NCBI GenBank assembly: GCA_951406725.2
Contig: OX597831.1
Span: 992,001-1,056,000, forward strand
Source: Octopus vulgaris
Taxonomy: Eukaryota
Length of the DNA: 64,000 nt
Direction of reading: 5' to 3'
A model generated the notes under the pieces. That model was not told the DNA's origin. It was given only the letters and a program-made list of their open reading frames with translations, and made no database searches. Both the position numbers and the translations under genes were made by a program. Shown piece by piece: positions 10,427-11,638 of this stretch. The stretch's first letter is position 1, and each line of letters opens with the position of its first letter.

Positions 10427-10427
<1 letters not shown>

Positions 10428-10638
10428 AAGGGAGTCTCTACGTGGTTGCCCGACATGCTGGAAACAGCAGCCAAACCGCCCTCAAACCACACCTTACTGT
10501 ATTAAAGAAGAAACCCATTGGGCAACGCAGTCTGGGTTACACAATTCCTGAAAAAAAAAATGATGGGATGGTCATAGCTTGAATGTCTTTTGCTCATTGG
10601 CCTGCTACAGCAGGGCTGACCTGGGGTTAAACAACAAC
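10427..10638 (+). mobile_element. About 200-bp SINE-like family E with a ribozyme-like head and (AAC)n tail; about 15 copies in the window
   Basis: Homologous copies near 4215-4420, 5670-5825, 10670-10855, 10915-11109, 16535-16747, 21780-21981, 28567-28768, 30090-30290, 47780-47955, 49940-50148, 54680-54850, 58200-58372 and 62970-63174. No box A or box B seen. Confidence 0.8.
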
Positions 10639-11638
10639 ACCTGCTGCTACTACTACTACTACTACTACTACTACAACCCCTTCCCTAAGAAAAGCGGTGA
10701 AATTTCCCTAAATCACATCTTACTCTCAGAAATAAGGAAATGAAATATTAGATGTAGTTCTACACATTCTTACAAAAGTCAGGACAGTCGTGGCTGGACA
10801 CTTCTTAATCATAAATGTGTCTGATTATGTTTGACCAAGGGTTAAACAACAACAACTATAACTGCTATTGACAGTTATAGCCAACAAGGAGGCTGACGGT
10901 GTTATTGTACAGCACCGGGTTTAGCTCTGATTGAGTAGATTAATGATGAAAGACTTTCCAACCATGACCACCACTTCTTTTTACTTATTTATGATAACAT
11001 TATACAGTGTGTCCTTCCTTTTTCAAGACGGTAAAGTGTAATTTGAGATAGATTTTGCTGCTGTTTTTAGCAGGCAAAATGACCATGTAGAGGCTCCCTG
11101 TTTGGCTCACGAGGTTGTTGTTGTTGTTACAGCTGCTGCTGCTGTTAATACTACTGCTGCTCTTTCAGCAGTTGCCGCTGCTGTTGAGCAGAAGTTATTT
11201 CATTCCTGCTGCTGCTGCTGCTCACATTTAGTAGTTTTTCTATCTCCCCTTCATCATTTCCATTCGGATCTTTGGTAATGTGCAAGGAACGGCATTGCTG
11301 TTCTGGGAGGAACCCATACAAACCCATGGCAACACACGTGTGGAGCAAACCAGTGCCTTTATCACTGGACCTCTCAATGACCCTATCTCATCTTCACAAA
11401 AGTGTGATATAGACAGAGGTGGTGGTTTTTGTATAGCCTGCAGTCAGCTCTGACTGAGTGCACCTATGCAAACACTTTTTCCAGTTGAAACAATAAATGT
11501 TGTTTTGCTTTTGGATGTAGCGTCATATCTATGACTATATCATCCTATGCATCTTTTTGGGGTTTTTTTCAGAAAGCATGGTGAATTTAAGCTATTATTT
11601 CTGACATACACACACACACAGCTAGATAGATAGATAGG

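Follow-up and report, generated by a model that had tools for sequence, protein, structure and literature searches.

What kind of element is the short repeat that recurs throughout a 64,000-nucleotide stretch of the Octopus vulgaris genome (hereafter the window), and where does its head come from? A preliminary description proposed that this SINE-like family, exemplified by the copy at position 10427, carries a head folding like an HDV-type ribozyme instead of a tRNA-derived one. It further took the element for a promoter-less retroposon that is, or was, released from host read-through transcripts by self-cleavage.

An Old and Abundant Repeat Family

An iterated nucleotide profile search of the window revealed 18 matches to an element about 220 bp long with an (AAC)n tail; 17 of them are copies and the other is a weak fragment. 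Reversed sequences used as a control gave no profile matches at E < 1e-3. These figures agree with the approximately 15 copies of a ~200-bp element reported before, and all eight copies named at that time were present with the correct positions and strands. Full-length copies were located at 10900–11109 (minus strand, with a complete head at 11109–11045 but a decayed P1 3′ strand, 22% from the consensus), 16535–16748 (minus), 28567–28760 (plus) and 62964–63174 (minus). Further copies were found at 4219–4426 (minus), 30075–30288 (plus), 49941–50156 (minus), 58204–58380 (minus) and 10427–10640 (plus, the copy of the preliminary description, 18% from the consensus). The remaining ones were incomplete: the 3′ end was absent at 5667–5824 (minus), the tail at 54679–54850 (plus) and the 5′ part at 11425–11612 (minus, 37% from the consensus); copies at 10685–10854 (plus) and 30753–30904 (plus) were 5′-truncated, only the 3′ half was present at 21507–21630 (plus), the head of 21806–21981 (minus) had an 8-nt deletion and that of 47780–47948 (plus) was complete, followed by an internal deletion. 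The weak fragment at 16764–16856 (plus) lay head-to-head with the copy ending at 16748.

Several other features were noticed in the window. A host gene probably has its first coding exon at 8470–8642 (minus), about 1.8 kb from the 10427 copy; the peptide, which we take to be La-like, ends in ...KLAQSAIIKQ before a possible splice donor and had no credible Pfam match. A decayed LINE fragment with a reverse transcriptase domain (Pfam RVT_1), presumably RTE-like judging by eye from its protein, occupied 12568–14100 (plus), and its end differs from the element tail. A fragment at 23640–23877 (plus), comprising a zinc knuckle region, was assumed by eye to come from an RLE-type LINE. A remnant at 35329–36413 (plus) contained a Spin-doc zinc finger (PF18658) and then a transposase stretch, presumably hAT-like by eye.

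The density of the family was 50 matches per 264 kb in the window taken together with 20 stretches selected in the vicinity of previous matches, and 15 per 200 kb in evenly spaced places on contigs C1–C4, with none in the reversed control. Extrapolation from both densities to the host assembly (2.80 Gb in 227 contigs, about 30 of them large) gave a copy number of about 2–5 × 10^5, corresponding to 0.9–3.0% of genome DNA. Divergence was assessed in a set of 172 matches from 104 sources, from which satellite loci had been removed beforehand, five satellite units in L131 remaining. In the 98 copies long enough to measure, divergence from the consensus outside CpGs averaged 26%, with a minimum of 14%. 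Because the copies are about 26% diverged, the family is regarded as dead today. Provided that the calibration of a JC distance of 0.2 to 56 Myr (PMC13282606) holds, its age would be, very roughly, 90 Myr.

Exact-pattern searches revealed no young subfamily. The 32-letter head pattern of the preliminary description had no exact match in the genome and a 34-letter pattern had one, and all 15 matches of a CpG-intact head pattern were old copies, none with a LINE ORF attached. An apparent subfamily one base longer turned out to be a 107-bp satellite (see below), and locus L031, considered as a sister family, proved to be a member of the same family with a decayed body. There was no exact match to the element head in metagenome contigs and nothing was found in viral contigs.

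Boundaries and Anatomy of the Element

Numbered from its first base, the consensus comprises a head (1–65), a linker (66–85), an A-run, a body and the 3′ end GCTAAAC(AAC)n, in keeping with the (AAC)n tail claimed before. The head consensus formerly compiled by eye was essentially right; its Y and R positions, seen here as mixed C/T and G/A columns, are decayed CpGs. In 65 anchored copies the information content did not exceed 0.10 bit at -15 to -1 and was at least 0.53 bit from +1, the values at +1 to +18 being inflated by the anchoring. The homology thus stops sharply at the P1 5′ strand, as had been observed. Nothing was conserved upstream of C1 in these copies; T occupied position -1 in only 15 of the 65, so no conserved base extends P1. 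Flanking sequences matching at 8/10 or better occurred in 8 of 39 copies versus 12% in the null (p 0.115), which does not demonstrate target-site duplications; age erases such traces.

The consensus was searched with the general A and B box patterns of Pol III promoters and neither motif was present, as the preliminary description had stated. The 64-kb window contained no tRNA genes, and two copies tested in Rfam gave no match to tRNA, 5S or SRP. Judged from its sequence, the element is not a Pol III SINE, since it has no tRNA, no box motif, no tRNA/5S/SRP match and nothing conserved upstream of C1.

The 10427 copy is embedded in a (CTA)n microsatellite. Positions 1–8, including the P1 5′ strand, are replaced in it by (CTA)n, and its in-register start would be 10419. 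Its position and strand were correctly assigned before, but its head is not complete: the P1 5′ strand is absent and no ribozyme match was obtained in Rfam.

Fit of the Head to an HDV-Type Fold

In HDV numbering of helices, the consensus fits a nested double pseudoknot in the order P1-P2-P3-L3-P3′-P1′-P1.1-P4-J4/2-P2′. P1 pairs positions 1–5 with 30–34 and includes a C6–C29 mismatch, which makes six positions and five pairs. J1/2 has 3 nt and the P2 5′ strand spans 10–15. P3 pairs 16–18 with 26–28 (G-U/C-G/C-G), L3 covers the 7 nt at 19–25, and P1.1 is the single pair U21–A35. The 6-bp P4 (37–42 with 47–52) has a GAAA cap, and J4/2 consists of C53-C54-A55-A56-A57, with C54 as the predicted catalytic C. 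The P2 3′ strand starts with U58–A15 and continues either directly (5/6) or after a 2-nt bulge (6/6).

HDV-like ribozymes have a P1 of 7 bp beside the cut site, and P1 of the CPEB3 consensus in Rfam has seven positions. The octopus head departs from this, being one pair short, with its six positions, the C-C mismatch and nothing conserved at -1. The other features expected of such a fold were present, namely a 3-bp P3, an L3 of 7–8 nt starting from U, a P1.1 of 1–2 bp (PMC3185411), and a catalytic C followed by x-A-A and then P2 (C54-A-A-A-U58). C54 was retained in 106 of 144 copies. The register between J4/2 and P2, previously considered non-canonical, is not necessarily so, as a register of C-A-A-A followed directly by P2 exists.

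The CpG-restored consensus head passed an HDV descriptor once, and none of 20,000 dinucleotide shuffles did; for the helices alone, 0 of 3,000 shuffles passed. The minus strand and the element body gave no match. This descriptor was composed after the sequence had been seen. A second, stricter one had no matches in 20 shuffled sets of 47.7 kb and found both the consensus and the head of an Ingi-type LINE described below, while a scan with a loose descriptor was uninformative (210 matches in the reversed control).

Only one of 60 near-complete genomic heads, L031:1485–1550 (G000:C20:22609956 region), passed the descriptor, which makes it the first candidate for residual activity. For L031, the best-kept copy, the CPEB3 ribozyme was the top match among 4,227 Rfam families (15.7 bits, E 0.12), the alignment spanning model positions 1–78, that is, the whole model, with a score below the gathering threshold of 35 bits. 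L031 had been picked by an exact-match search for the consensus and not by ribozyme likeness, and the Rfam check is independent of the descriptor. The shuffle test and this top match both favor the HDV order of helices put forward in the preliminary description. Rfam applied to the whole window returned microsatellite-driven miRNA noise only, among the 150 of 262 matches listed. In the minimum-energy fold calculated without pseudoknots, P2 and P4 form and P1 and P3 do not. The homology among copies begins exactly at C1, which is the predicted cut site.

In the 10427 copy a putative remnant of the head extends over 10428–10483 (plus strand), in ungapped register to the consensus and with helices named by analogy with CPEB3. 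It comprises the P2 5′ strand (10428–10433), P3 (10434–10436 and 10444–10446) with L3 (10437–10443), the P1 3′ strand (10448–10452), the P1.1 partner A (10453), the P4 hairpin (10455–10470), the predicted catalytic C (10472) and the P2 3′ strand (from 10476 or 10478 to 10483).

Two kinds of tandem arrays made from the element were observed. A young 107-bp satellite, whose unit consists of the element head, the linker and a TA-rich spacer, was present in L054, L065, L075, L131, L019 and L029 (C29, C30, C6 and C33), with a 93–97% unit match in three arrays. The units inspected do not hold an intact ribozyme, having two P1 mismatches and G24 of L3 changed to A, and because P1 and L3 are damaged this satellite is likely not a retrozyme-like array. 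Arrays of the element 3′ half only, with periods of about 132 and 149 bp, occurred in L013, L022, L030 and L090–L095.

Covariation among Copies

Double changes that keep P4 paired had been brought forward in favor of the fold. Both cited changes exist, but they are transitions, the 47780 copy breaks the neighboring pair, and no excess of covariation over neutral decay was found. In 96 copies from loci not chosen by head searches, the observed and expected numbers of compensatory cells were 8 and 10.3 for P1, 4 and 5.3 for P3, 2 and 1.9 for P1.1, 13 and 10.3 for P4, and 23 and 21.7 for P2; the control ratio for complementary pairs outside the model was 1.08. Covariation among copies was rejected as evidence for the fold, as there was none in 96 or 172 copies. 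The 24 best-kept heads showed 25 compensatory cells versus 17.2 expected (10 of 500 shuffles), a result prone to false positives in which kinship can mimic structure; nearly all of this excess fell in P1 and P2, with one cell in P4. Because dead copies are not expected to covary, the lack of covariation neither refutes nor supports an ancestral fold. Across families, P1 and P1.1 change letters yet still pair, as compared by eye.

An Ingi-Type LINE and Its Short Derivatives in the Same Genome

A search with PF00075 (RNase H) gave eight matches, seven of which were old non-LTR remnants. In six of these seven the ORF end coincided with, or was closely followed by, a (CAA)n run, L182 being interrupted earlier. 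A protein search with one RNase H remnant produced 103 matches in three identity bands. Protein domains identified a decayed near-full-length LINE, L189 (G000:C10:3419801–3424700, plus strand), with a single ORF encoding a 2A-like motif, PHD fingers, APE, RT, RNase H and CCHC, followed by GCTAAAC(AAC)n. This domain order matches L1Tc/Ingi (PMC3185411, PMC4748587), 2A is present in Ingi-1_AC (PMC3708506), and RNase H is described as present in Ingi and absent in Vingi (PMC13708176). L189 is therefore referred to here as a putative Ingi-type element, on domain architecture.

Genome-wide, eight copies of the 5′ end of the L189 family were found, all of them opening with an HDV-like fold whose P1 5′ strand comes first. 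In this head, P1 has seven positions, fully paired including C1–G in L292 and L293; P2 has seven pairs, the first separated from the other six by a 1-nt bulge; P3 is ACC/GGT with a 7-nt L3; P1.1 is C-G and J4/2 is CGAA. Near-canonical heads of this type are carried by L210:1062–1140, L191 and L291, and Rfam found no ribozyme match in that of L210. A head-like stretch 60 nt upstream of L189 itself was not significant (E 0.05–0.12). In L191 and L291 (C4) the heads are opposite in strand to a neighboring 3′ fragment of the same family, an arrangement like that of twin-priming inversions.

L293–L295 are fusions of about 300 bp between the Ingi-type 5′ end and the last 67–73 nt of the LINE. Because they join the 5′ end of the LINE to its 3′ end, they demonstrate that short Ingi-type elements of bipartite make-up arose in this genome. 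In L292–L295 the J4/2 C corresponding to the catalytic base is replaced by A, so that short elements here could do without it for at least a few rounds of copying. A copy of the octopus element directly abuts a 5′-truncated Ingi-type fragment at L193:3132–3336 and another lies just upstream of such a fragment at L190:2987–3262, in the same orientation in both cases. This adjacency may reflect a shared target preference or template switching.

Search for the Parent LINE

The element and the L189 LINE have in common the C1 start, the bulged P2, an R-CC/GGT P3, CxAA, a CTACCG.CT-type linker before the A-run and the end GCTAAAC(AAC)n. The similarity of the head sequences was marginal (p 0.01–0.11 over seven related copies), and for the last 60 nt of the tails p was about 0.2, only the final 6 nt and (AAC)n being common to the L189 family. 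A covariance model of element heads scored the Ingi-type head at 4.3 bits (E 8.1). The L189 family would at best be a sister of the parent, because the architecture is common and the head and tail sequences are not. The element body and tail matched none of the 3′ ends recovered for three Ingi-type families, which form a partial sample.

The preliminary description had suggested looking for a LINE with the same 5′ and 3′ ends; none sharing the head or the tail of the element was found in the sampled part of the genome (about 1 Mb). The 14 loci matching the tail pattern all proved to be tail satellites or copies of the element, and in none was a LINE ORF attached on the upstream side; two tail matches with an RT upstream, found in 717 kb, were both unrelated neighbors. 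The young LINEs topping a PF14529 search, presumably CR1-like on our own reading of their proteins, were rejected as partners, as they have other repeat ends and no head or tail in common with the element (20 stretches, 30 loci). L126–L145 comprise at least three such young families, with open frames of 950–1020 aa and 95–99.8% identity between copies. In metagenomes, 80 Ingi-like loci had no head match, and no descriptor match occurred in the 31 upstream regions scanned. At L140 (about 1540–1660, reverse strand) the last 60 nt of the element follow a tRNA-like head with an A-box-like start; the arrangement was seen once and is a possible chimera or recombination.

Comparison with Known Systems

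In the ribozymes of the L1Tc family, C1 is the first base and P1.1 is a single pair (PMC4035085, PMC3185411). The first 77 nt of L1Tc act as ribozyme and promoter both (PMC3383444), the latter being an internal Pol II promoter with an essential CGTG in L3/P3 at +25 to +28 (PMC4748587). The trypanosome NARTc, RIME and SIDER elements resemble the octopus family as short non-coding elements (NARTc has 263 nt) with an HDV-like fold from +1 = C (PMC3383444, PMC4035085, PMC3185411). The likeness extends to a 3-bp P3, a 7-nt L3 ending in ACGT, a single-pair P1.1, a CAAA-type J4/2, CGTG in L3/P3 and degenerate dispersed copies. Compared by eye, two Trypanosoma brucei SIDER2 sequences from the supplement of PMC4035085 share GCC-TC.ACGT-GG around L3 with the element, and one of the two also has AGCCAAAT at J4/2; P1.1 is A-U in SIDER2 and U-A in the element. 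Unlike these trypanosome elements, the octopus family resides in an animal in an estimated 2–5 × 10^5 copies, ends in (AAC)n instead of poly(A) and has a P1 of six positions, its parent LINE was not found, and its ribozyme activity is a putative one.

The R2 SIDEs and R2/R1 SIDEs of Drosophila are likewise non-autonomous, ribozyme-headed and not Pol III SINEs, and the ribozyme of a SIDE may differ by about 25% from its counterpart in the LINE (PMC3414825). They are confined to 28S rDNA, few, shown to cleave and equipped with a large J1/2 (PMC3414825), whereas the octopus family is dispersed and has a 3-nt J1/2. A LINE-type 5′ head and a microsatellite tail are also features of the bipartite LINEs of the RTE, Ingi, Vingi and R2 clades (Kojima 2018, PMC5786205), but neither end of the octopus family was matched to a LINE. 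The CPEB3 ribozyme (RF00622) shares the whole-model register, the 7-nt L3 and the single-pair P1.1 (PMC9901934). It differs in that the octopus head scores 15.7 bits against a threshold of 35, has U-A in place of C-G at P1.1 and a shorter P1, and belongs to no conserved single-copy host element.

Mollusc LP-SINEs are similar in being SINE-like, with a LINE-derived head of about 70 nt and a tandem-repeat tail. Their head, proposed as a promoter, has a different, Nimb-17-like sequence, and no ribozyme fold is reported for it in the available portion of PMC4758252; identity with the octopus family was rejected by eye on the head sequence. In Fig. S2 of that paper the LP-SINE head shows, by eye, a hairpin with possible loop pairing, and it may itself be an unrecognised small ribozyme. 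Some metazoan non-autonomous SINEs use hammerhead or HDV-like ribozymes (review PMC6765202). Among titles and abstracts, no report of a SINE family with an HDV-like ribozyme head was found for octopus, and Repbase or Dfam may already name the family. Neither "Ingi" nor "ribozyme" occurs in the main texts of two papers on cephalopod repeats, whose repeat libraries may list the family under a neutral name.

Proposed Origin and Alternative Explanations

The reading that we put forward, and to which we give an even chance, is that the copies are old, inactive 220-bp non-autonomous retroposons whose HDV-type head likely derives from an Ingi-type LINE, whose master RNA likely cleaved itself and was likely copied by an Ingi-type RT. 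Support for the proposal that a non-autonomous retroposon carries an HDV-type head comes from the shuffles, the CPEB3 match, the motifs common to it and trypanosome Pr77 sequences, and the architecture of the Ingi-type LINE. The likely donor of the 5′ 65 nt is the 5′ end of an Ingi-type LINE, and a likely route is indicated by the LINE of this type in the same genome, which has an HDV-like head, ends in (AAC)n and gave rise to bipartite derivatives of about 300 bp. Pol II would have transcribed the master copy, either from the head itself or as read-through, after which the head would fold as the predicted HDV-type ribozyme and the RNA would be cut 5′ of C1. An Ingi-type protein would then recognise the 3′ end and prime reverse transcription at the (AAC)n tail, insertion often taking place in CAA/CTA-type microsatellites (cf. 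the 10427 copy in (CTA)n and L193, where the truncated Ingi-type fragment begins at the tail of a copy). The head may have had a second role as a Pr77-like internal promoter. Descent, cleavage of the master RNA, target-primed reverse transcription and this promoter role are what we infer from the comparisons above. The designation "promoter-less" lost its support, because the same 77 nt of L1Tc are an internal promoter and the octopus head carries the Pr77 promoter motif CGTG at +23 to +26. With one of 60 near-complete heads passing the descriptor, it can be said at most that the element was released by self-cleavage, not that it is.

A less probable account, still to be taken seriously, keeps the Ingi-type ancestry and assumes that the ribozyme was already crippled in the master, so that the head served as a Pr77-like Pol II promoter from +1 and the pairing is a fossil. 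A P1 one pair short and mismatched would fit this, as would CGTG at nearly the L1Tc positions (+23 to +26 versus the essential +25 to +28; PMC4748587), and an internal promoter yields an equally sharp 5′ edge. Short Ingi derivatives without the equivalent of the catalytic C still have precise 5′ ends, and several trypanosome SIDER heads fail to cleave (PMC4035085). Those C-less derivatives, however, number only about four among eight heads, against 10^5 copies of the element, and the helices, P1.1 and the C-x-A-A junction were all kept despite far divergence from the Ingi-type head, which suggests that the fold was under selection along the way. Rather unlikely, in our estimation, is a ribozyme-headed SINE class in animals: an Ingi-type HDV ribozyme with an unusually short P1 of six positions would have been a free head module joined to a body and tail of other origin, and its efficient cleavage would have let a Pol III-independent element multiply to several hundred thousand copies (1–3% of the genome), with some copies in introns or UTRs, L031 for instance, still cutting host transcripts.

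It is still more doubtful that the HDV-type head belongs to a chimera or to another LINE clade (RTE, R4/Dong, Nimb or LOA), the head module having been placed on an unrelated body and tail. The body and tail indeed match none of the three recovered Ingi-type 3′ ends, six LINE clades are reported with 5′ ribozymes (PMC5786205), mollusc LP-SINEs use LINE 5′ ends as exchangeable heads (PMC4758252), and RTE-like and RLE-like LINE fragments are present in the window. On the other hand, the core motifs, the C1 start and the one-pair P1.1 are Pr77-like, and the bulged P2, the linker with the A-run and the (AAC)n end are common to the Ingi-type family of this genome; by eye, the LP-SINE head (PMC4758252 supplement) is a different sequence, and the young CR1-like LINEs have different ends. 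That the fold is a coincidence and the element an ordinary SINE, its head of unknown source, appears very improbable. It would account for copies without covariation, an Rfam score under the threshold and a pseudoknot-free minimum-energy fold lacking P1 and P3, but no shuffle out of 20,000 or 3,000 passed, the stricter descriptor found the consensus and the Ingi-type head and nothing in its 20 shuffled sets (47.7 kb), and the fold begins exactly at the first base of the element.

Significance of the Family

Ribozyme-headed non-autonomous retroposons are already known from trypanosomes (NARTc, RIME, SIDER) and, bound to rDNA, from Drosophila (SIDEs). The octopus family, under the reading preferred here, is a new and unusually abundant animal example of the RIME/NARTc/SIDE-like design and not a new mechanism. 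It suggests that this design is capable of giving rise to a major dispersed repeat in an animal, estimated at 1–3% of the genome, and the Pr77-type head is extended to metazoan Ingi-type LINEs. A single genome also offers a natural test of ribozyme versus promoter: the catalytic C is present in an Ingi-type head, missing from its short derivatives and present again in the abundant family, whose P1 is short. Some of what octopus annotations list as "unclassified SINE" may have come from LINEs.
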